DNA of 53,165 nt, taken from assembly GCA_937894935.1 (NCBI GenBank), contig CALAYC010000332.1, forward strand, positions 1 to 53,165, given 5' to 3'. This stretch comes from an uncultured Verrucomicrobiota bacterium. GTDB lineage: Bacteria > Verrucomicrobiota > Verrucomicrobiia > Limisphaerales > JADLHS01. A model generated the notes under the pieces. The model ran no database searches, was not told where the DNA came from, and worked only from the letters and a program-made list of their open reading frames with translations. The position numbers and the translations under genes are program-made. Shown here in pieces: positions 23,931 to 51,447 of this stretch; positions within the stretch are counted from its first letter, which is position 1; each line of letters opens with the position of its first letter.

Positions 23931-24650
23931 TTAATCCTCCGGCGAAGGGCTGGAATTTTTCAACGCCTCAAACAGCCACTTCTGTCGCTTCGTCGCGCTT
24001 TCCGGAAGCTGGCGCGGATTCCATCGCCTCGGGCTGGGCATCACCGCCAAAAGCTGGGAAATCTGTTCCACGGTCAAGTCCGACGCGCGACAGTTGTAAT
24101 GATAATGAGCGGCGGTTTCCAAACCATAGACCCCGTTTCCAAACTCGATGACATTGATGTACAGCTCCATGATTCGCCGCTTGGACAGCAACAGTTCCAT
24201 CCACATCGTATAGTAGGCTTCCAAGCCTTTCCGCACCCAAGACCGGCCCTGCCACAAAAACAGCGAGCGCGCACATTGCTGAGTAATGGTTGAAGCTCCG
24301 CGCGGAGGCGCACCCGTCGCCTTGGAGTTCTCAAGCGAGATTTTAATCCCCGTCCAGTCAAACCCGTGATGTTGGTAGAATCCTGTATCCTCCGCCATCA
24401 GCACGCCGCTCAGAAACAAGGGCGGCGCATTTTTCAATTCCAACCAGAGCATTTGCTGCCGTTTGACCGGTTGGCCGGTTGAATCTATGCGAAAACGATC
24501 AAAAAATCTTGGTCCCGAACTGGAGGGATTGACAAAGCGCACGAACAAAACCTGTGCAGGCGGCAGGTAGAGCGGCGCGGCCAAAAGCACAATCCCCACG
24601 GCTCGCTTGTGACGCCAGATCCATCCGTTAAGTTTCTTTAGCCGGAGCAT
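23931..24650 (-). CDS. mtgA: Monofunctional biosynthetic peptidoglycan transglycosylase (GT51)
   Basis: LMAEDTGFYQHHGFDW...GASTITQQCARSLFL...RKGLEAYYTMWMELLLSKRRIMELYINVIEFG. Confidence 0.9.
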   Translation of the reverse strand: MLRLKKLNGWIWRHKRAVGIVLLAAPLYLPPAQVLFVRFVNPSSSGPRFFDRFRIDSTGQPVKRQQMLWLELKNAPPLFLSGVLMAEDTGFYQHHGFDWTGIKISLENSKATGAPPRGASTITQQCARSLFLWQGRSWVRKGLEAYYTMWMELLLSKRRIMELYINVIEFGNGVYGLETAAHYHYNCRASDLTVEQISQLLAVMPSPRRWNPRQLPESATKRQKWLFEALKNSSPSPED

Positions 24651-25074
24651 TTGCTCTCAATGTTTCACGCGTAATCACCACCCCGCCGCCAACCAACAGA
24701 AACAACAAGACGCCGTACGTAAAATAATCCAAGGCACGATTCAGGGCTTTGACCGGAAAAATCCCAAAACATCCGCACCCGCTCACTCCTTTTGAGATCA
24801 TCCAAGCGTGATAGCCTGTGAATAAGACAGCAGCCGTATAAACGACGTAAGCCTTTGAACTTACTGAGATGCCATTGGTCAGCACCGCCAACAGGATGCC
24901 TGCTTCAAAAACAGCCGCGAAGAACAAAAATTGCCGTATGCTCAAAAACGTGAACATCCCATGCGCCGCCACTAATCGCTCTGGCACAAGAGCAATGGAT
25001 AAAAGTTTGGCGACAATGCTCAGGCTGAAAATAACCACCGCCATTCGCACATAAACCCGGAGCGTCATAGTCAA
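24628..25074 (-). CDS. MauE/DoxX-family redox-associated membrane protein
   Basis: It has four hydrophobic helices and the GCGCFG motif typical of MauE-like proteins. It overlaps both neighbours, by 4 nt upstream and 23 nt downstream. Confidence 0.65.
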   Translation of the reverse strand: MTMTLRVYVRMAVVIFSLSIVAKLLSIALVPERLVAAHGMFTFLSIRQFLFFAAVFEAGILLAVLTNGISVSSKAYVVYTAAVLFTGYHAWMISKGVSGCGCFGIFPVKALNRALDYFTYGVLLFLLVGGGVVITRETLRANAPAKET

Positions 25075-25877
25075 TAGACGGAGTTGAAGAAATTATCCGT
25101 ACCCGCCGAGACAAACTCCCACGGAATCCATTTCTTTGTCCCCGGCTCAAAATAACTCCGCAGATACACTGGAGCCGGAGTTTTATTTGCCTGCCGAACG
25201 ATCGCGTTAAAAGTAATGACCTTGATTTCTCCGTTTTGTTTCAGCAATTCTTGCGGCGTCGGACGCGGCGCATAATAGGAAAAATGTGTTAGCACACTGT
25301 CATTGGCCCGCCGGGCCGCTATCTCGCCGAGGGGCGCGGGCCAGTAAGACAACGCTTCAACCGTGAGGATTGCCTCTTGCAGGGCGATTTCTACCCATTG
25401 TCCGCCAGCCCGTTTGCGCTCTGGAATCTCGATATGCTCCCAGAACTGCTCCAGCACGTCCTCGCTTGCCGCCGGAGGATTCAGGCCCAGCTTGCCAAGT
25501 CTGTTCCGGTCGAAATCAACGACGCTCTTGACGAATTGACCGTCAGGAGAGCCAAACCGGAAATTTCGGAAATGATCAAACTCATCGCTGTGGTGGTAAA
25601 ATAAAAAGCTGAACAAGAGTGAATCCCACGCGCGCGCCTCTTCGGAACTCATTTGATAGCCGCCTTCCTTTTTGATTTTTGTCAAGCTGGAGCGAAAGGC
25701 AAACGAGTCTTGAATTACCGTAAAATCCAACTTGGCCCATTCGTTCGTGAATGTCGGACTTGAAAGCACAACATGCTCGGGCGGGCGATGTGGTGAAAAA
25801 ACATTGAGCAACAAGAAAACTCCGATGCAAACAACAATCGGCCCCATAAGTAGGAGGGCAAGCTTTTTAGAATTCAT
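25071..25877 (-). CDS. Hypothetical membrane-anchored protein (268 aa)
   Basis: MNSKKLALLLMGPIVVCIGVFLLLNVF is followed by a soluble domain with no Cys. I recognised no family. I prefer the ATG at 25877, and an alternative ATG at 25913 abuts the palindrome. Confidence 0.5.
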   Translation of the reverse strand: MNSKKLALLLMGPIVVCIGVFLLLNVFSPHRPPEHVVLSSPTFTNEWAKLDFTVIQDSFAFRSSLTKIKKEGGYQMSSEEARAWDSLLFSFLFYHHSDEFDHFRNFRFGSPDGQFVKSVVDFDRNRLGKLGLNPPAASEDVLEQFWEHIEIPERKRAGGQWVEIALQEAILTVEALSYWPAPLGEIAARRANDSVLTHFSYYAPRPTPQELLKQNGEIKVITFNAIVRQANKTPAPVYLRSYFEPGTKKWIPWEFVSAGTDNFFNSVY

Positions 25878-25915
25878 GCAATCTTCGAGTTTTGGCTCTA
25901 TAATTTGGAACATTC

Positions 25916-33981: not shown

Positions 33982-34758
33982 ATGACCCATTACGAAGCCC
34001 GCTTCGGCGGCATCCTCCGACTTTACGGCAGCGACGGTCAGGAACGTCTGCGGCGTGCGCATGTTTGCGTCATCGGCATCGGCGGCGTGGGCTCGTGGGC
34101 GGTGGAAGCGCTGGCCCGTTCCGGCGTCGGACAGCTTACGCTAGTAGATTTAGACGACGTCTGTATCAGTAACACCAATCGCCAACTGCACGCCGTCACC
34201 GGGACGTTTGGTCAACCCAAAGTAGAAGCCATGGCCGCTCGCGTGCAGCTCATCAATCCTGATTGCACCATTCACGCGGAACAATCGCTTTTCACCGCAA
34301 AGACCGCTGAACAATTGTTGTCGCCGTCTTATGACGCAGTGCTTGATGCGATTGACCAAACCCCGATGAAAGCGTTGCTCATTGCGCTCTGTCGGCAGAA
34401 GAACATTCCGATTGTCACCACCGGCGGCGCCGGCGGACGACGCGATCCAACTGCGTTGCGGGTCGCGGATTTGGCGCATACCACGCACGACGGCTTATTG
34501 CAAAACGTTCGTAAGTTGCTTCGCACCGAACACAATTTCCCACGCGATCCCAAACAACCGTTTGGCGTGGACTGCGTGTATTCACCCGAACCGCAAGTGT
34601 TCCCCGCAAAAGACGGTACGATCTGCGCCACGCCGGAACCCGGCGAACGGTTGCGATTGGATTGTCGTACCGGCTACGGCACGGCGTGTTTCGTGACCGG
34701 TGCATTTGGTTTCGCCGCTGCCGCGCAAGTGGTGAAGCGAATTACGGAAACGCATTGA
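33982..34758 (+). CDS. tcdA: tRNA threonylcarbamoyladenosine dehydratase (ThiF-family, TcdA/CsdL)
   Basis: RFGGILRLYGSDGQERLRRAHVCVIGIGGVGSWAVEALARSGVGQLTLVDLDDVCISNTNRQ. Confidence 0.85.
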   Translation: MTHYEARFGGILRLYGSDGQERLRRAHVCVIGIGGVGSWAVEALARSGVGQLTLVDLDDVCISNTNRQLHAVTGTFGQPKVEAMAARVQLINPDCTIHAEQSLFTAKTAEQLLSPSYDAVLDAIDQTPMKALLIALCRQKNIPIVTTGGAGGRRDPTALRVADLAHTTHDGLLQNVRKLLRTEHNFPRDPKQPFGVDCVYSPEPQVFPAKDGTICATPEPGERLRLDCRTGYGTACFVTGAFGFAAAAQVVKRITETH

Positions 34759-35041
34759 GGTTAGCTCTCGCGGTAAGCTGCGACGCCTTTCGCCGAGAGT
34801 CCTTACTCACACCACACATGAACTTCGACCACTCCTGAACCGCTGCCGTCAACCGAGAACAGTTTGCGAGTTCAGGTAGGGCAAGCTTGAGCCATTTCAT
34901 CAATCCCCAAACAGCAGGACAAGAGCGGGAGACTTGGACAGATTTTGTCCGTGTCCTTAAATAAGCTGTTCATCGGAGCGCGAAAAGTGAGCGAAACCAA
35001 AATGAAACCATTCTCGAACGTACTAGCGGCTCAAATCTAAT

Positions 35042-35078
35042 TGTAACAGGGAAAAGAATCCCTGTTACAGGGTTGACA
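35042..35078 (+). promoter_or_regulatory. Perfect 11-bp inverted repeat abutting a -35-like TTGACA upstream of the methyltransferase
   Basis: TGTAACAGGGA-aaagaa-TCCCTGTTACA spans 35042-35069, followed by GGG and TTGACA (35073-35078). AATAAC follows after 17 nt, only a few nt before the ATG at 35104. Confidence 0.45.
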
Positions 35079-35103
35079 ATTAGGCGCGATTGCCCAATAA
35101 CGA

Positions 35104-36141
35104 ATGCACATGGCGCGCTCCTCCACATCATATCCTCGCAGATGGAACTCAGGCCGAACGACGGTAATTCGTGTTCCCGAACGCGTGGCAGACGATCTCC
35201 TGCGTATTGCTCGACGATTAGACGAATCCCGCAGTTATGCTCTCCGCGAAGAAAACAATGGCTTGGTTCTCGAAGTCTTGCCTGCAGAGAAGATTTCTTA
35301 CAAAGCCACAAAACCAGTGAACGTCTCCAGTGTACCACAGCGGAGTCCGTTCCGTTATCCCGGCGGTAAGACTTGGCTAGTCCCCTACATTCGAGACTGG
35401 CTGCTAAGCAAAAAGACCAAGCCGTCCCGACTAATTGAACCATTCGCGGGTGGAGGGATCGTGAGTCTGACAGCAGCATTTGAAGGCTTAGCACGACATG
35501 TAATTTTTGCAGAGTTGGACGACGCTGTTGCCTCTGTTTGGCGCGTAGTGCTGAACGGTCAGGCAGAATGGTTGGCAAAGCAGATTTTAAATTTTGATCT
35601 GAACCTCGAAAATGTTTCGAGCATTTTGAAACGAGAATCAAAGGAGCTTCGCGAAAAGGCATTTCAGACAATATTGCGAAATCGTGTCCAACGAGGCGGT
35701 ATTATGGCAGCTGGTGCGGGTTTGATCAAAACTGGTGAAGGCGACCGAGGCTTGGCTTCTCGTTGGTATCCGGAAACCCTTGCACGACGAATTCGGGAGA
35801 TTAACCAGTTGAAGGATCGCATGACCTTTGTTGAGTGCGATGGTTTTGCTTTGATCGACGAACACAAGGCGGATTCAGATGCGGTTTTCTATATCGATCC
35901 ACCATACACTATGGCGGCTCGTCGGCTTTACAAGGTTTGGCAAATTGATCATTCACGATTGTTTACTGCGATGGCGAGGTGTAGTGGAGATTTCCTCATG
36001 AGCTACGACAACACGGCCGAAATCGTTGCGCTTGCAGAGAAACATGGGTTCGAGAGCAAGCCCATCGCAATGAAAAGCACGCATCATGCAAAGATGACCG
36101 AGCTCTTGATTGGAAAGGATTTGTCTTGGCTAGAAAGTTGA
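35104..36141 (+). CDS. Dam-like (D12 class, alpha-type) N6-adenine DNA methyltransferase with an extra N-terminal segment of about 85 aa
   Basis: FRYPGGKTWLVPYI, IEPFAGGGIVS (motif I) and FYIDPPY (motif IV) occur in the alpha order. The N-terminus RTTVIRVPERVADDLLRIARRLDE looks like the strand-helix of an RHH fold. An alternative ATG lies at 35110. Confidence 0.85.
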   Translation: MHMARSSTSYPRRWNSGRTTVIRVPERVADDLLRIARRLDESRSYALREENNGLVLEVLPAEKISYKATKPVNVSSVPQRSPFRYPGGKTWLVPYIRDWLLSKKTKPSRLIEPFAGGGIVSLTAAFEGLARHVIFAELDDAVASVWRVVLNGQAEWLAKQILNFDLNLENVSSILKRESKELREKAFQTILRNRVQRGGIMAAGAGLIKTGEGDRGLASRWYPETLARRIREINQLKDRMTFVECDGFALIDEHKADSDAVFYIDPPYTMAARRLYKVWQIDHSRLFTAMARCSGDFLMSYDNTAEIVALAEKHGFESKPIAMKSTHHAKMTELLIGKDLSWLES

Positions 36142-37098
36142 GGTTCCCGGCAGACGCGGTTGTTGCGCCAAAAGACCGGGCGCAACAGAAGCGAGCTTAG
36201 TACGGAGTTGCTCCTCAAATCTTTCACGCGACAAAGGAATGCCTCCGGTGAGCGATTTCACTGAAGCGTCCAGAGTGGTGTAAACAACTTCATGTGGAAC
36301 GAGCTTCCATCCTTCGGATTTGGGCTCATATCGAACTACAAACCAAGTGATTTCTGCATTCGATAGATAGCGTTCTCGCGTAAGTCCGACCAACGAGCCG
36401 AAAAACGCTTCATCAATAACAACAGCCATCTTTTTTCCCCATGTGCGAATAACAGGGACCTTGGTTTGCAATTGGGGAAGCAACCGCTTGGGGCCAGAAC
36501 TGCGCCAGTCCGGCCGGCGATGCCGAGCAGGAAATTGCAAGGCTTCAGCCTCTGCTACCGACAACATTTTGAATTCGTTGACCATGCTTTGGCCGGAGAA
36601 ATACACAGCCTGAAGCTCGAGGGCGCACCAATCCATCGGCTGGCGGTCGGGATGGACTAAAACATTGTCAATGCGACCAATGAAATCACGCGAATCATCA
36701 TCCTCAGTCGTCGACGTGTCTTCAGGCTTCAGGCGATCTAGGAAACCAATCTCACCCAAAACAATCGGTGATTCTGTGTTCAGTATCGTTTTCCCCACCC
36801 ACTGGAAAATTGTATCTGATTCCAAAAAGCGATTCGGACAAGTCGTGATCAATGGTCCCATTCCGGCCACTGGTCCGTCGCTAATTTGCTGATAAGCTCG
36901 GAGTGAACAAACACCACCTTTTTTATTGCACGTGGCATTGTGTTGAAATGGACATTTCGTCCCAGTGAGTCCCGGGGTTTCCATTTCCACCTTGGCTCGT
37001 CGAAACCGTTCAGCAGAGGACATGGTTTCGAAACCTACGCCATACCATTCGCCGATCGAATATCGGCTTCGGGCTTTGAGTTTCGGGGGTTGCGGCAT
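36130..37098 (-). CDS. NotI-family type II restriction endonuclease-like protein
   Basis: IGEWYG...KCPF...TCNKKGGVCS...TTCPNRF matches my recollection of the NotI N-terminal Cys4 metal motif. ALELQAVYF resembles the NotI LEIQTMDF catalytic E-x-Q segment. The gene is convergent with the methyltransferase and overlaps it by 12 bp. Confidence 0.65.
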   Translation of the reverse strand: MPQPPKLKARSRYSIGEWYGVGFETMSSAERFRRAKVEMETPGLTGTKCPFQHNATCNKKGGVCSLRAYQQISDGPVAGMGPLITTCPNRFLESDTIFQWVGKTILNTESPIVLGEIGFLDRLKPEDTSTTEDDDSRDFIGRIDNVLVHPDRQPMDWCALELQAVYFSGQSMVNEFKMLSVAEAEALQFPARHRRPDWRSSGPKRLLPQLQTKVPVIRTWGKKMAVVIDEAFFGSLVGLTRERYLSNAEITWFVVRYEPKSEGWKLVPHEVVYTTLDASVKSLTGGIPLSRERFEEQLRTKLASVAPGLLAQQPRLPGTSTF

Positions 37099-37297
37099 CT
37101 CGCGGCGGGATTATTACGATTGTGTCCCGTTTGGCAAGTCGCGCCAGAAGGCCGAATTGAGTTTGGGAATTGCGGAACAAAAATTATTCAGCAGCGTTCC
37201 CTCATCGCAATGGCAATTCATGCGCATCAAATTGGTAACGCCAGGCCCAATTGGCTGGGCGCTTGTTTCTCCGCTTTGCCGTCGTTAGCCTCCGCGC

Positions 37298-37981
37298 ATG
37301 AGTAATCACAGAGCGCCTTTCACGCGAGAAGATCCCTGGCGCGTATTGCGGATTATGGGCGAATTTGTGACGTCGTTTGAAACGCTGTCTCACGTCCGCC
37401 CTTCCGTCACCGTTTTTGGTTCGGCGCGCATGAAGCCCACTGATAAGTATTACAAAGCCGCGGTCGAATTGGGCAAAAAACTCGCGCAACATCAGATTCC
37501 TGTCATCACCGGTGGCGGGCCGGGTATCATGGAAGCCGCTAACAAAGGCGCAGCGCTCGGTAAAGGGGTTTCCATCGGTATGAACATCGAATTGCCGCAC
37601 GAGCAGAAGAGCAATCCTTACGTCAATCTGCCGGTGAACTTTCACTACTTTTTTGCGCGCAAGGTTTGTCTCGTGAAATACAGCATCGCGTTCGTTTATA
37701 TGCCGGGCGGTTTTGGCACGTTGGACGAATTTTTCGAAGTCTTCACGCTGGTGCAGACGGAACGTATTCCGAAGTTTCCCATCATTCTTTTCGGCAAACG
37801 CCATTGGTCCGGTTTGTTGCGCTGGGTGAAACGCGAGTTGCGCGACAGAAATCATTACATCGGTCCGGACGATCTTAAGCTCATCACGCTCACCGATGAC
37901 GTGGATCACGCCGTGGCGGTTATTCGCGAATACCTGCAACACGTCGGTCCACCGGAAGTCGTTCCCAAAGCGTTTCCGTGA
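37298..37981 (+). CDS. LOG-family (TIGR00730) Rossmann-fold nucleotide-binding protein
   Basis: VTVFGSARMK...VITGGGPGIMEAANKGA...PGGFGTLDEFFE. The 246-aa minus ORF is an antisense shadow. Confidence 0.9.
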   Translation: MSNHRAPFTREDPWRVLRIMGEFVTSFETLSHVRPSVTVFGSARMKPTDKYYKAAVELGKKLAQHQIPVITGGGPGIMEAANKGAALGKGVSIGMNIELPHEQKSNPYVNLPVNFHYFFARKVCLVKYSIAFVYMPGGFGTLDEFFEVFTLVQTERIPKFPIILFGKRHWSGLLRWVKRELRDRNHYIGPDDLKLITLTDDVDHAVAVIREYLQHVGPPEVVPKAFP

Positions 37982-37990
37982 TTGGAACTC

Positions 37991-38755
37991 ATGGCCAGCC
38001 CGACGACATACGCGGTACTATTGCGCGAGGCGGGGCAGCCCAACGCCGAAGCTGTATGTCGCGCATTCCGGCAATTCCGGCATCTCACCGATGCGGACGC
38101 CATTCGTCTGGCGGCCAACGCCCAGGGCATTCTCATGCGGCATTTGAATGTGGACGAAGCGAAAGCGCTACAGCAGGCGCTTGGCGCGGAAGGTGTCAAT
38201 GCCGCGCTGGCCAAGGATGATGAACTGCGCTTTCTGCCATCAGCGCGCCGCGTGCATCACGCGGAATTGTCGTCCGATGCATTGCTCATTTTCGATCATC
38301 TCAATCGGGCACTGGCCGTGCCGTGGAACGAAGTATCACTGGTGGCGGCCGGTGCTGTTCCACATGTGGAAATCAGCAGTTCGGTTCAGCATCCCGGCGT
38401 TGGTATTCATTCTTTGTTTCGTTCTGGCGCGCGTTCCGCTCCACGCAGCCAATTGGAAACCACGCGTCAGCTCGTGTTGGAATTGATCACGCGCAATGCA
38501 TCGGCGCGTTATGAAATTCACGCGCACGATTTTCATTTTCATCGGCTGCCAGCGCTTCCAGCGACATCGTTGATGGAGCGATTCGTCTGGCTCGTGCGCG
38601 AAATGAGCCAACGCACGACCGGTGCGGTGTTGAATCGTGGAGTGCAGGATATCCGCGATGGCATCACGCTGGTGCGCGGTTATCCGAGTCGGCAGGCGTT
38701 GTTGGACGAAATGGTGTGGTTGCTATGGAGCGAAGCGCACCGTCGGCACGGCTGA
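37991..38755 (+). CDS. Hypothetical protein
   Basis: The ORF begins directly after the LOG stop (TTG 37982 or ATG 37991). I recognised no family. Confidence 0.45.
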   Translation: MASPTTYAVLLREAGQPNAEAVCRAFRQFRHLTDADAIRLAANAQGILMRHLNVDEAKALQQALGAEGVNAALAKDDELRFLPSARRVHHAELSSDALLIFDHLNRALAVPWNEVSLVAAGAVPHVEISSSVQHPGVGIHSLFRSGARSAPRSQLETTRQLVLELITRNASARYEIHAHDFHFHRLPALPATSLMERFVWLVREMSQRTTGAVLNRGVQDIRDGITLVRGYPSRQALLDEMVWLLWSEAHRRHG

Positions 38756-48271: not shown

Positions 48272-48586
48272 CGCTGTTGTCCATTCGTGTTTCGAATACC
48301 TGCGCATTTCATGGGGAAACTCACGTCAGAACATTCGCTTTATGAGGAGGGTTGGCGGAATGGTGCGGGCGGCAGGCGATGAAAAGTAGCAATTATCAGT
48401 GCAGCTAAGTGGTTGTAGCGGGATTGCTGTTTTCAGGGGTTTTGCTGCGAAAACTGAAGACTTATCGCGATGTGGCCACTTTGGGCCACATGACGCGGAT
48501 TTCCAGACATGGGAATCTCACTGGATTTTTGGCCGCAATTCGTTCTTATGTCCGCGACCGTAAACAACCAAGATTAGACCACAACC

Positions 48587-49999
48587 ATGCAACCCGCACG
48601 CAACAACAACCGTTTTGCATTCATTATCGTAACTGCTTTGTTCTTTATGTGGGGATTCATCTCCTGCATGAACGATTTGCTTATTCCGAAATTCAAAGCG
48701 GATTTTGATCTTAACCAGAAACAGGCGAATTTGGTTCAATTTGCATTTTTCGGTGCATACTTTGTTGTATCGCTTGCGTACTTTCTGATTTCGGCGGCAA
48801 AGGGCGATCCGATTAACAAAATCGGGTATAAGAATGGGTTGGTTCTCGGCCTCTTGATTTCCGGTGTTGGTTGTTTTCTGTTTTACCCTGCAGCCGAAAC
48901 CAAGCAATACCCGCTTTTTCTGGGTGCTCTCATCGTGCTGGGCGCAGGCATTACAATAATTCAAATCGCTGCTAATCCTTACGTAACAATTCTGGGTCCG
49001 GAAGAAACGGGGCCCTCTCGGCTTAACCTTTCACAAGGTTTAAATTCACTGGGGTACGTTATCACCCCGCTGATCGGTGGAATCTTACTTTTTGGAGCAA
49101 AAGAAATCTATACAAGCACTGGTGGCGTAGATGCGGTGAAGCTCCCTTACGTGGGCTTGGGCATTGCCTTCGTGATCTTAGCAGCAATTTTCAAATTGAT
49201 CTCCCTGCCGAGTTTCAGTCAGGAAGGGAAGATTGAAGCGGGGGTGAAGGTTTTTCGTCACAAACACTTTGTTTGGGGGTGGTTGGCAATTTTCTTCTAT
49301 GTCGGAAGTGAAGTCACAGTTGGCAGTATTTTGATCAATTATCTCGCGGATGAGAGTGTCATGGGAATGCCCGAAGAAACGTCCGCCAAATTTCTCTCGT
49401 TTTATTGGGGCGGTACGATGATTGGTCGTCTGATGGGCGCAATTTCTTTGAGCGGGGTGCGTGCTTCGAGGAAATATGTTTTCATGGCATTAGCTGCTAT
49501 CGGGGCCACTGGGGTCATCTATCTGAACGCGACATTTAAAGAGAACCTTACCCACGGACATCACATTCCTTTGAATGCAATTTTGCCTTACCTCGGCCTC
49601 GTTGTGCTGAGTTTCGTATTCTTTGTTATTGGGCGGTCGAGTGCTGGCAAAATGATTGGTTTGTTCGCGTTAGTAGCGGTGGTGCTCACCTGTCTTTCGA
49701 TGGGATCAACCGGAGAATGGGCGCTCTGGTCCATCATTGGTATCGGACTGTTTAACTCCATTATGTGGTCTAACATTTTCAGCCTCTCGATCCGGGGGCT
49801 TGGCAAGGATACGAGCCAAGGTAGTTCTCTGCTTGTGATGATGATCGTAGGTGGAGCAATCATGCCGGTGATTCAGGGTGCTTTGATGGATGAATACGGC
49901 GTACGCGCTTCGCTGAGCATTGTTCTGCTGGGTTACGCGTATCTTGCTTTTTATGGCTTTAAAGGCCATCGCATCGGGCGCAAGGAACTGGCGCAATAA
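48587..49999 (+). CDS. MFS sugar transporter, FHS (fucose/glucose/galactose:H+ symporter) type
   Basis: FIIVTALFFMWGFISCMNDLLIPKFKADFDLNQKQANLVQFAFFGAYF is the typical FucP/GluP opening. About 12 TM segments are present. Confidence 0.85.
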   Translation: MQPARNNNRFAFIIVTALFFMWGFISCMNDLLIPKFKADFDLNQKQANLVQFAFFGAYFVVSLAYFLISAAKGDPINKIGYKNGLVLGLLISGVGCFLFYPAAETKQYPLFLGALIVLGAGITIIQIAANPYVTILGPEETGPSRLNLSQGLNSLGYVITPLIGGILLFGAKEIYTSTGGVDAVKLPYVGLGIAFVILAAIFKLISLPSFSQEGKIEAGVKVFRHKHFVWGWLAIFFYVGSEVTVGSILINYLADESVMGMPEETSAKFLSFYWGGTMIGRLMGAISLSGVRASRKYVFMALAAIGATGVIYLNATFKENLTHGHHIPLNAILPYLGLVVLSFVFFVIGRSSAGKMIGLFALVAVVLTCLSMGSTGEWALWSIIGIGLFNSIMWSNIFSLSIRGLGKDTSQGSSLLVMMIVGGAIMPVIQGALMDEYGVRASLSIVLLGYAYLAFYGFKGHRIGRKELAQ

Positions 50000-50025
50000 A
50001 CCGTGCAATACAACTGAACCAAGTT

Positions 50026-51447
50026 ATGAACCGCAGAGAATTCATTCGTAATACAACCATTGCCGCAACCGCCATCGCGCTCGCGCCGTCCGGCGGGTTT
50101 GCGGCCACTTCGAGTTTTCCGGTCGTTCGCACGCCGGAGAACAAACGGCACTTCAAGAGCGTCGCCGTCGAGCGGATGATTGAGAAAATCAAATCGTCCA
50201 TCGGCAACAAAGAGCTCGCATGGATGTTTGAGAACTGTTTCCCGAACACGCTCGATACCACGGTGGATTTCACCATTGTGAACGGTCGGCCCGACACGTA
50301 TGTCATCACGGGCGACATTGATGCGATGTGGCTGCGCGACAGTTCAGCGCAGGTGTATCCCTATCTGGATTTGATGAAAGATGACCAGTCGCTGCAACAG
50401 TTGATTGCCGGCGTGATCAATCGTCAGACCTATTGCATTCACAAAGATCCGTATGCGAATGCGTTTTACAAAGACGAAAACAAACGCGGCGAATGGGCGA
50501 CGGATTTGACGGACATGAAACCCGGCGTGCATGAGCGCAAATGGGAAATCGATTCGCTCTGCTACCCGATTCGCCTCGCGTATCGCTATTGGAAATTGTC
50601 GGGTGACACCACGCCGTTTGATACGGCCTGGCGCGACTCGATTAAATTGATCGTGCGCACGTTCCGGGAACAGCAACGCAAAGATGGCCCGGGCCCGTAC
50701 AAATTTTTGCGGCGGACGGAATGGGCGACGGATTCATTGCCGGGGCGCGGCTACGGCAACCCGGCGAAGCCGGTCGGACTGATTTTCTCGATGTTCCGGC
50801 CGAGCGATGATGCGACGATTTTTCCGTTTTTGATTCCGTCAAATTTCTTCGCCATGGTCAGCTTGCGTCAGGCGGCGGAGATGGTGGAAAAACTTCAAAA
50901 CGACGCCGATCTCGCGAAGCAGTGTCGCGCGCTGGCGGATGAAGTGGAAAAAGCGTTGAAAGAATACGCGGTGGTGAATCATCCGAAGGCCGGAAAAATT
51001 TACGCTTTCGAAGTGGATGCGTACGGCAATTACTACTGCACAGACGATGGTAACATTCCGAACCTGCTGTCGCTGCCGTATCTCGGCGCAGTGAAGCCGA
51101 ACGACAAGATTTATCTCAACACGCGCAAGCTGTTGCTCTCGGCAGATAATCCGTATTGGTGCATCGGCAAAGCGGCAACCGGCCTCGGCGGACCGCACGT
51201 GGGGGTGGACATGATCTGGCCGTTGGGCGTGATCATTGAAGGTCTGACCGCGAAAACCGATCGCGAAGTAAAACGCTGTCTCGACACGTTGCAAAAGACG
51301 CACGCGGGCACGGGCTTCATGCACGAAGCGTTTCACAAGGATGATCCGAAGAAATTCACGCGGTCGTGGTTTGCGTGGGCGAACACGATTTTCGGCGAGT
51401 TTGTGATGAAGACATTCAACGAACGTCCGCATTTGCTGAATAGCTGA
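50026..51447 (+). CDS. Glycoside hydrolase family 125 (DUF1237, exo-alpha-1,6-mannosidase-like) with a Tat-type signal
   Basis: MNRREFIRNTTIAATAIALAP is followed by ITGDIDAMWLRDSSAQVYPYL and WEIDSLCYPIRLAY. Confidence 0.8.
   Translation: MNRREFIRNTTIAATAIALAPSGGFAATSSFPVVRTPENKRHFKSVAVERMIEKIKSSIGNKELAWMFENCFPNTLDTTVDFTIVNGRPDTYVITGDIDAMWLRDSSAQVYPYLDLMKDDQSLQQLIAGVINRQTYCIHKDPYANAFYKDENKRGEWATDLTDMKPGVHERKWEIDSLCYPIRLAYRYWKLSGDTTPFDTAWRDSIKLIVRTFREQQRKDGPGPYKFLRRTEWATDSLPGRGYGNPAKPVGLIFSMFRPSDDATIFPFLIPSNFFAMVSLRQAAEMVEKLQNDADLAKQCRALADEVEKALKEYAVVNHPKAGKIYAFEVDAYGNYYCTDDGNIPNLLSLPYLGAVKPNDKIYLNTRKLLLSADNPYWCIGKAATGLGGPHVGVDMIWPLGVIIEGLTAKTDREVKRCLDTLQKTHAGTGFMHEAFHKDDPKKFTRSWFAWANTIFGEFVMKTFNERPHLLNS

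Follow-up and report, generated by a model that had tools for sequence, protein, structure and literature searches.

NotI, the founding member of Pfam family PF12183 (PDB 3BVQ/3C25), recognizes the site GCGGCCGC, and to our knowledge its fold is known only from this GC-only 8-bp cutter. Here we describe a predicted type II restriction–modification (R-M) cassette from an uncultured Verrucomicrobiota bacterium (GenBank assembly GCA_937894935.1, contig CALAYC010000332.1; the 53,165 nucleotides analysed are hereafter termed the window), in which a remote relative of NotI (the restriction endonuclease, REase) is encoded beside a D12-class adenine methyltransferase (MTase). Three bodies of earlier work provide the closest points of comparison. 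NotI contains an Fe-Cys4 structural motif and has a glutamine in place of the catalytic lysine (PMC4081073). In the M.SsoII R-M system, residues 1-71 of the methyltransferase M.SsoII regulate transcription of the system (PMC3978073). PD-lambda-5, an experimentally validated E. coli prophage defence system that was cloned in a host from which the mrr region had been removed, has been described as compacted RM+Abi-like, that is, combining restriction–modification with features of abortive infection (Vassallo et al. 2022; PMC9519451). With considerable confidence, we read the window locus as a functional, horizontally acquired type II R-M cassette that pairs a NotI-fold nuclease with a D12 MTase, the latter probably repressing its own synthesis.

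The cassette consists of two convergent open reading frames (ORFs), the 3' ends and stop codons of which share a 12-bp overlap. They are enclosed by tcdA (33982-34758; NF011696 TcdA, 293 bits) and by a LOG/TIGR00730-family gene (37298-37981), both assigned by profile search. A reading made earlier from the letters of the DNA (the sequence-only reading) had quoted motifs from both ORFs and described their convergent layout between tcdA and LOG, all of which we confirmed in the sequence.

35110-36141, + strand: D12-class (alpha-type) N6-adenine DNA methyltransferase, 343 residues (PF02086)
36130-37098, - strand: NotI-family (PF12183) type II restriction endonuclease, 322 residues (PF12183, E 4.8e-57)

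The REase scores 193.5 bits against PF12183 (threshold 22), with residues 48-263 aligned to profile positions 16-233 of 238. We placed its start at the ATG at 37098 and not at the shorter database call (297 residues) because the N-terminal sequence RYSIGEWYG is conserved in homologs. A set of four cysteines, C49, C57, C64 and C87 (36838-36954; motif text CPF...CNKKGGVCS...CPNRF), precedes a D...E-x-Q nuclease motif, in which the predicted catalytic residues are D144 and E161-L-Q163 (36610-36669). Among 52 diverse homologs, reaching down to 34% identity, the residues C49, C57, C64, C87, K59, E161, K213 and D229 are invariant, and D144 and Q163 are conserved in at least 90%. An AlphaFold2 model built on the homolog alignment (predicted local distance difference test score (pLDDT) 93.4; predicted template modelling score (pTM) 0.89) was compared with the PDB using Foldseek. 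The NotI–DNA structure 3c25_A was the sole significant match (E 1.4e-8, probability 1.00, template modelling (TM) score 0.56/0.51, 14% identity); the runner-up had an E value of 0.2. Judged by their position and conservation, the cysteines and catalytic residues of the REase appear to be equivalent to those of NotI; the cysteines would bind metal as a Cys4 module, and the catalytic residues would make up a D...E-x-Q variant of the PD-(D/E)XK site. The REase is best placed, on sequence and predicted fold, as a remote branch of the NotI family.

The likeness to NotI lies in a PF12183 score far over threshold, in NotI being the one PDB structure that the predicted fold matches significantly, and in the presence of four cysteines N-terminal to the nuclease core together with an acidic...E-x-Q motif. 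By contrast, the REase is shorter (322 residues, against 353-354 in the NotI crystal chains), shares 14% identity with NotI in the structural alignment, and has an adenine methyltransferase as its partner, with a predicted A:T-containing target unlike GCGGCCGC. The sequence-only reading had proposed that the 322-residue protein is NotI-like and retains its catalytic residues; the PF12183 match, the conserved Cys4 and D-E-Q residues and the NotI fold match all agree with this. No match to the REase was found in a PADLOC search, even at E <= 10.

The MTase was assigned by profile search (PF02086, E 1.3e-15, 58.3 bits, cut-off 22). Its start was set at the ATG at 35110 (the ORF is open from 35104) because homologs begin with MARSS. 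The protein includes the motifs FRYPGGK (35350-35370), EPFAGGG (35437-35457) and DPPY (35896-35907), of which EPFAGGG and DPPY are invariant among its homologs. Homologs with 72-89% identity over the full length were found. The predicted product is N6-methyladenine (m6A) at a specific target. The N terminus is a conserved module (residues 1 to about 40, 35110-35229) made up of a basic tail, a strand (TTVIRVP) and a helix; it is followed by a variable linker to about residue 68 and by the catalytic domain from about residue 69. The AlphaFold2 model of the MTase was poor (pLDDT 53.6; the alignment was shallow, with all sequences more than 72% identical) and was not used.

The MTase belongs to the same Pfam class as the GATC-specific enzymes E. 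coli Dam, DpnM and T4 Dam, and shares with them the motif order xxGGK, FxGxG, DPPY. The earlier description of it as 'Dam-like' is thus correct at the level of the D12 class but does not extend to the Dam family proper: its score against TIGR00571 is 49 bits, under the curated cut-off of 114.85, and E. coli Dam in the PDB is matched at E 0.014. On this basis we rejected assignment of the MTase as a Dam ortholog, and a specificity for GATC does not follow. In the PADLOC defence database, the named entry that it matches best is component B of PD-lambda-5 (profile PD-Lambda-5_B, E 1.6e-46, residues 78-336). The cassette as a whole was rejected as a PD-lambda-5 system, since component A is unmatched and the nuclease has no PADLOC match, indicating a different effector partner.

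The REase belongs to a large family. Searches returned 2454 matches in a 90%-clustered collection and 581 representatives at the 50% cluster level; the best 120 of the 2454 are all at least 66% identical to it. Relatives occupy at least 584 loci in species-representative genomes, mostly of uncultured Verrucomicrobiota, Acidobacteriota, Armatimonadota and Planctomycetota, and are also found in Sphingomonas sp. Leaf339. We read 85 loci. An orthologous D12 MTase gene lies convergent to the REase gene and 0-60 bp from it in about 73 of them, a pairing that is retained even where the REase is 43-50% identical to that of the window, and in every complete locus a methyltransferase gene adjoins the nuclease gene. 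In RefSeq, plasmids carried by cultured bacteria have a gene labelled 'NotI family restriction endonuclease' beside one labelled 'DNA adenine methylase'; examples are an Aeromonas veronii plasmid (NZ_CP121823.1), the IncP-1 plasmid pEST4011 (NC_005793.2), and plasmids of Variovorax and Burkholderia cepacia. The adenine methyltransferase partner, which the sequence-only reading had treated as unusual, is therefore what most members of the subfamily have. This subfamily is large and mobile, is already annotated and extends over many phyla; members partnered by a C5-cytosine methyltransferase also exist. Our literature search found no characterized m6A-partnered NotI-family enzyme and no characterization of the pEST4011 pair or of the other plasmid pairs.

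The Aeromonas plasmid pair is related to that of the window through both genes (nuclease, 46% identity over 92% of the query; orthologous MTase, 52% over the catalytic domain). The RefSeq plasmid pairs differ from the window locus in that their genes are in tandem with the nuclease first, whereas those of the window are convergent, and in that the N terminus of the plasmid MTase is unrelated to that of the window MTase. For the 4009-bp plasmid NZ_CP121823.1 (L170), the annotation lists only MobC, the NotI-family nuclease and the DNA adenine methylase. The plasmid amounts to an R-M cassette borne by a minimal backbone, and its MOB-suite type is non-mobilizable. In pEST4011 the same pair adjoins trfA.

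The remaining complete loci, eight in number, lack a D12 enzyme, and in all eight a PF00145 C5-cytosine methyltransferase lies beside the nuclease. These C5-partnered nucleases fall at no fewer than three separate places in a neighbour-joining tree and share up to 65% identity with their D12-partnered counterparts. Of 78 alignment columns that are conserved at 90% or more in the D12-partnered nucleases, 64 are common to all C5-partnered nucleases and 77 to at least six of the eight; no alignment column separates the eight C5-partnered nucleases from the D12-partnered ones. To account for the recurrent swapping between D12 and C5 partners beside a nuclease that is otherwise unchanged, we propose that the same target might be protectable by either m6A or 5-methylcytosine (m5C). 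The nuclease subfamily would then read one target, or closely related ones, containing both A:T and G:C pairs.

Two observations concern individual C5-partnered loci. On the Paraburkholderia plasmid pBN5 (L172 3536-6347), the nuclease lies beside a cytosine methyltransferase gene and a gene for the very-short-patch repair endonuclease Vsr. Vsr is expected where deamination of m5C yields T:G mismatches in the target sequence. In L034, a 306-residue cysteine-containing ORF without a Pfam match (1744-2664, - strand) is located across the C5 methyltransferase gene from the NotI-family nuclease.

Because the partner of the REase is an adenine methyltransferase, its target site very probably contains one or more A:T pairs, and a new specificity for the NotI fold may reasonably be supposed. 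As to the rare cutter that the sequence-only reading had thought possible, the analysis gave no evidence for or against an 8-bp site. CAGCTG, GTCGAC and CTCGAG were considered as targets, being the most depleted hexamer palindromes near cassette loci, and were rejected: cassette-free close relatives are equally depleted. The ratio of observed to expected CAGCTG is 0.33 and 0.28 in the two D12 groups (in the window itself, 3 copies were counted where 13.1 were expected), and the same depletion is seen in cassette-free contigs of close relatives (0.35, 0.40 and 0.35). Since the depletion is lineage-wide, it cannot be attributed to the R-M system and provides a weak lead only.

The limits of the cassette were defined by comparison between loci. 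DNA homology to other cassette loci starts exactly at 35041/35042 and ends within the 5' part of the nuclease gene, and a weakly conserved promoter-like stretch extends to about 37140; taken together, these limits give a mobile unit of about 2.1 kb (35041 to about 37140). The islet described in the sequence-only reading is larger by about 280 bp on the left and about 160 bp on the right, both of which are spacers:

34759-35040, no strand: non-coding spacer from the tcdA stop to the cassette, part of the low-G+C islet and absent from other cassette-bearing loci
37141-37297, no strand: non-coding spacer from the cassette to the LOG-family gene, with homology to the LOG-bearing relatives L102 and L107 from 37258 and no Rfam match

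For the left spacer, no homology was found in the cassettes of relatives or in cassette-free relatives, and there was no Rfam match. The G+C content of the cassette is 0.501, against a window mean of 0.549 (standard deviation 0.020, in 2.1-kb segments), which places it in the lowest 3.8% of such segments. G+C at third codon positions is 0.48-0.49 in the cassette, against 0.63 for each of the genes that flank it. The lowering of G+C is genuine, if modest. The earlier hand count of 28/60 G+C was correct, as was the description of an AT-richer islet (about 50% against 55% for the window).

The genes that flank the cassette are different in every host examined. In 61 of 62 loci the cassette has a higher A+T content than its flanks, with a mean difference of 5.9 points, and its G+C content still correlates with that of the host (r = 0.75). 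Members of the family are found on conjugative and on small plasmids; no match was found among 50,697 phage records. Within the host species, eight contigs with identical TcdA, from at least two studies, carry the cassette intact at the same site and 99.9% identical, and it is thus fixed in that species. Sequencing runs matching the window came from several compost and manure studies. No same-species empty site was found, all contigs with identical TcdA carrying the cassette, and the exact sequence of the window LOG protein was not on record. In relatives with TcdA 82-91% identical, the FGE-sulfatase-tcdA synteny is kept, the R-M pair is present in none, and the DNA downstream of tcdA is different in each. 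In two of the cassette-free relatives (L102 and L107), the tcdA-LOG adjacency is kept with the two genes about 580 and 1160 bp apart, respectively, and there is no trace of either R-M gene. Judged from gene order, these two loci represent the nearest thing to an empty site; the insertion junction could not be read from them, as their intergenic DNA is too diverged to align with the window spacers.

These comparisons point to horizontal acquisition of the cassette. The earlier proposal that a NotI-fold endonuclease and a D12 adenine methyltransferase form a type II R-M pair on an acquired segment is supported, as is the view that the pair is not part of a syntenic core, given flanks that vary by host and relatives that retain the tcdA-LOG adjacency without the cassette. 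The absence of an integrase, a tRNA and flanking direct repeats, also noted earlier, was borne out: no integrase is present among the neighbouring genes, a tRNA search of the whole window found none, and around the cassette there are no flanking direct repeats above chance and no visible target-site duplication. After tcdA (window position 34759 onward), loci L086-L092, L102 and L107 continue with beta-propeller/phosphoesterase, DUF3943, RuvC or Amidase_2 genes, or with LOG after 0.6-1.2 kb. The DNA downstream of tcdA marks a synteny break and may be a hot spot for gene insertion.

Upstream of each gene of the cassette we identified a promoter-like element, preceded in the case of the MTase by a candidate operator:

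35042-35072, no strand: putative operator, comprising the inverted repeat TGTAACAGGGA-N6-TCCCTGTTACA (35042-35069) and a promoter-proximal palindrome
35073-35101, + strand: promoter-like element of the MTase gene (-35 TTGACA at 35073-35078, 17-nt spacer, weak -10 AATAAC at 35096-35101)
37110-37137, - strand: predicted promoter-like element of the REase gene (TTGCCA and AATAAT, 16 nt apart), with 12 nt between its end and the ATG

The copy nearer the promoter forms a perfect palindrome of 13 bp, CCCTGTTACAGGG (35060-35072), which abuts the TTGACA hexamer (35073-35078) and occurs once in the window. In four diverged loci, in which the coding DNA is 66-69% identical, the palindrome, the TTGACA and the distance to the start codon are strictly conserved, whereas the adjacent bases diverge. 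The TTGACA lies 31 nt before the ATG of the MTase gene. The -10 element and the transcription start are predicted positions; because the ATG lies 8 nt past this -10 and there is no Shine-Dalgarno sequence, the MTase mRNA is probably leaderless or nearly so. The promoter-like element of the REase gene matches the consensus at 10 of 12 positions and is weakly conserved in relatives at a fixed distance from the ATG. Neither the operator heptamer nor a copy of the 13-mer was found near the nuclease promoter region.

The palindrome co-occurs with the N-terminal module of the MTase. An N-terminal extension, of which the conserved part is about 40 residues, is present on about half of the D12 partners; it is absent from the remaining 'short' orthologs, which begin near residue 60-70 of the window protein. 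Paired exact TGTWACA heptamers are present upstream of 22 of 39 extension-bearing MTase genes and of 0 of 32 short ones (Fisher p = 4.5e-8). This arrangement recalls M.SsoII, in that the window MTase has a separable N-terminal extension of about 70 residues that co-occurs with a palindrome in its own promoter region. It differs in that M.SsoII is a C5-cytosine enzyme whereas the window MTase is of the D12 class, and in that the window module has no detectable helix-turn-helix and looks like a strand plus a helix. Because the window genes are convergent, the putative operator can act only on the MTase promoter. From the association between module and operator, we consider it rather probable that the MTase represses its own promoter through binding of the N-terminal module to the palindrome.

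In the mechanism that we propose, the D12 MTase would place an N6-methyl group on adenine within a specific target sequence of the host chromosome, and the REase would cut the same sequence when it is unmethylated. Cleavage would destroy incoming phage or plasmid DNA and would also penalize loss of the cassette. The two genes would be transcribed convergently, each from its own promoter, and the N-terminal module of the MTase, of about 40 residues, would bind CCCTGTTACAGGG at its own -35 box and so repress synthesis of the enzyme. A broader proposal is that a Cys4 scaffold of the NotI type reads an A:T-containing target new for the fold and protectable by m6A or m5C, in a system that in addition has a previously undescribed ribbon-helix-helix-like N-terminal autorepressor with its own operator; this we put forward as a tentative possibility.

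Several observations count against our reading of the cassette. NotI was not retrieved from the PDB sequences at E <= 10, either by phmmer with the REase or with the 52-homolog profile, and as profiles miss NotI, the link to it rests on a broad Pfam model and on a fold match of moderate TM score (0.51-0.56). As regards autorepression, 17 of the 39 extension-bearing loci have no second exact heptamer, 14 of these 17 retaining a single heptamer in the conserved place; no Pfam family matches the N-terminal module at E <= 10; and the best match of the module to a DNA-binding protein, the strand/helix-A segment of the ribbon-helix-helix protein AmrZ, is non-significant (E 0.59). The evidence of expression is very thin: a few metatranscriptome contigs (depth 2-8) touch both genes and the upstream spacer, and these have no strand or start information and may reflect DNA carry-over. 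Activated-sludge metatranscriptome contigs that are at least 99% identical to the window also cover 34874-35152, taking in the non-coding spacer and the operator/promoter of the MTase gene; as they include DNA upstream of the proposed promoter, they do not fit a strictly leaderless start unless they derive from DNA carry-over or tcdA read-through. This coverage could be explained by read-through from tcdA, by an unannotated transcript or by DNA carry-over.

Another reading, for which nothing speaks directly, is that the nuclease is not the cognate partner of the MTase but has, for instance, a methylation-dependent or other DNA-processing role and an incidental position; its link to NotI is remote at the sequence level. 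We regard this as highly improbable, as every complete locus among the 85 has a methyltransferase gene next to the nuclease gene, an arrangement that outlasts the swap from the D12 to the C5 class, and a methylation-dependent nuclease next to an active methyltransferase would be self-destructive. A cassette that functions mainly as a selfish addiction module, killing segregants that have lost it and giving little net protection from phages, would account for the occurrence of a compact two-gene unit in unrelated contexts and on small plasmids, including the 4-kb Aeromonas plasmid with MobC and the pair, and for a composition that is AT-richer than the host in 61 of 62 loci. This role does not exclude defence, since the same parts serve both, and a related MTase subfamily is part of a system that was experimentally selected for phage defence; as the principal explanation we hold it to be unlikely.

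A further alternative is that the locus is a decaying or inactive remnant, in which the nuclease no longer cuts and the MTase is an orphan with an epigenetic or regulatory role. Precedent for decay is provided by four relatives (L020, L023, L031 and L025) with a frameshifted or truncated nuclease gene, some of them with an intact MTase gene beside it. These broken copies come from metagenome-assembled genomes (MAGs) and may be assembly errors, whereas the two window ORFs run their full length and retain every catalytic and cysteine residue that is invariant in the family, and both genes are intact in all eight of the same-species contigs. We therefore consider a remnant improbable and retain the functional R-M cassette as the preferred reading.

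The broken copies themselves are located at L020 10001-10887, L023 5714-6358, L031 10001-11166 and L025 8152-9058; the MTase gene is intact beside the nuclease gene in L020, L023 and L031, and lies beyond the contig end in L025. In two other loci it is the MTase gene that is split or rearranged (L026 3207-4066 and L028 8-2361). Such genes could reflect decay, towards orphan methyltransferases, or errors of MAG assembly.

If the specificity of this subfamily is uncharacterized, cloning of one member would add an A:T-containing site to the NotI fold and, with it, a second case from which to learn how recognition elements are positioned by the Fe-Cys4 module; the plasmid-borne members from cultured hosts (Aeromonas, pEST4011) would be a handy source. 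Two comparisons are available within the family: one of a single nuclease scaffold under m6A or m5C protection, the other of the same methyltransferase with or without the putative N-terminal repressor module and its operator. The latter would provide a compact case for control of the balance between methyltransferase and nuclease on entering a new host. As regards genome annotation the result is routine, existing pipelines giving both genes their correct names. Of more interest among the by-products of the analysis are the conserved operator, together with the N-terminal module that accompanies it, and the exchanges between m6A and m5C partners.

Elsewhere in the window, two patches have a G+C content as low as that of the cassette (0.49-0.50 in 2.1-kb segments). 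The patch at 24200-25900 contains two ORFs without a Pfam match (24628-25074 and 25071-25913, both - strand), beside a PF00912 transglycosylase gene; that at 48400-50500 contains genes for a major facilitator superfamily (MFS) transporter and a GH125 alpha-mannosidase. Directly downstream of the LOG gene lies an ORF of 257 residues (37982-38755) with no significant Pfam match, which is syntenic with LOG in L102, in L107 and in every same-species contig.

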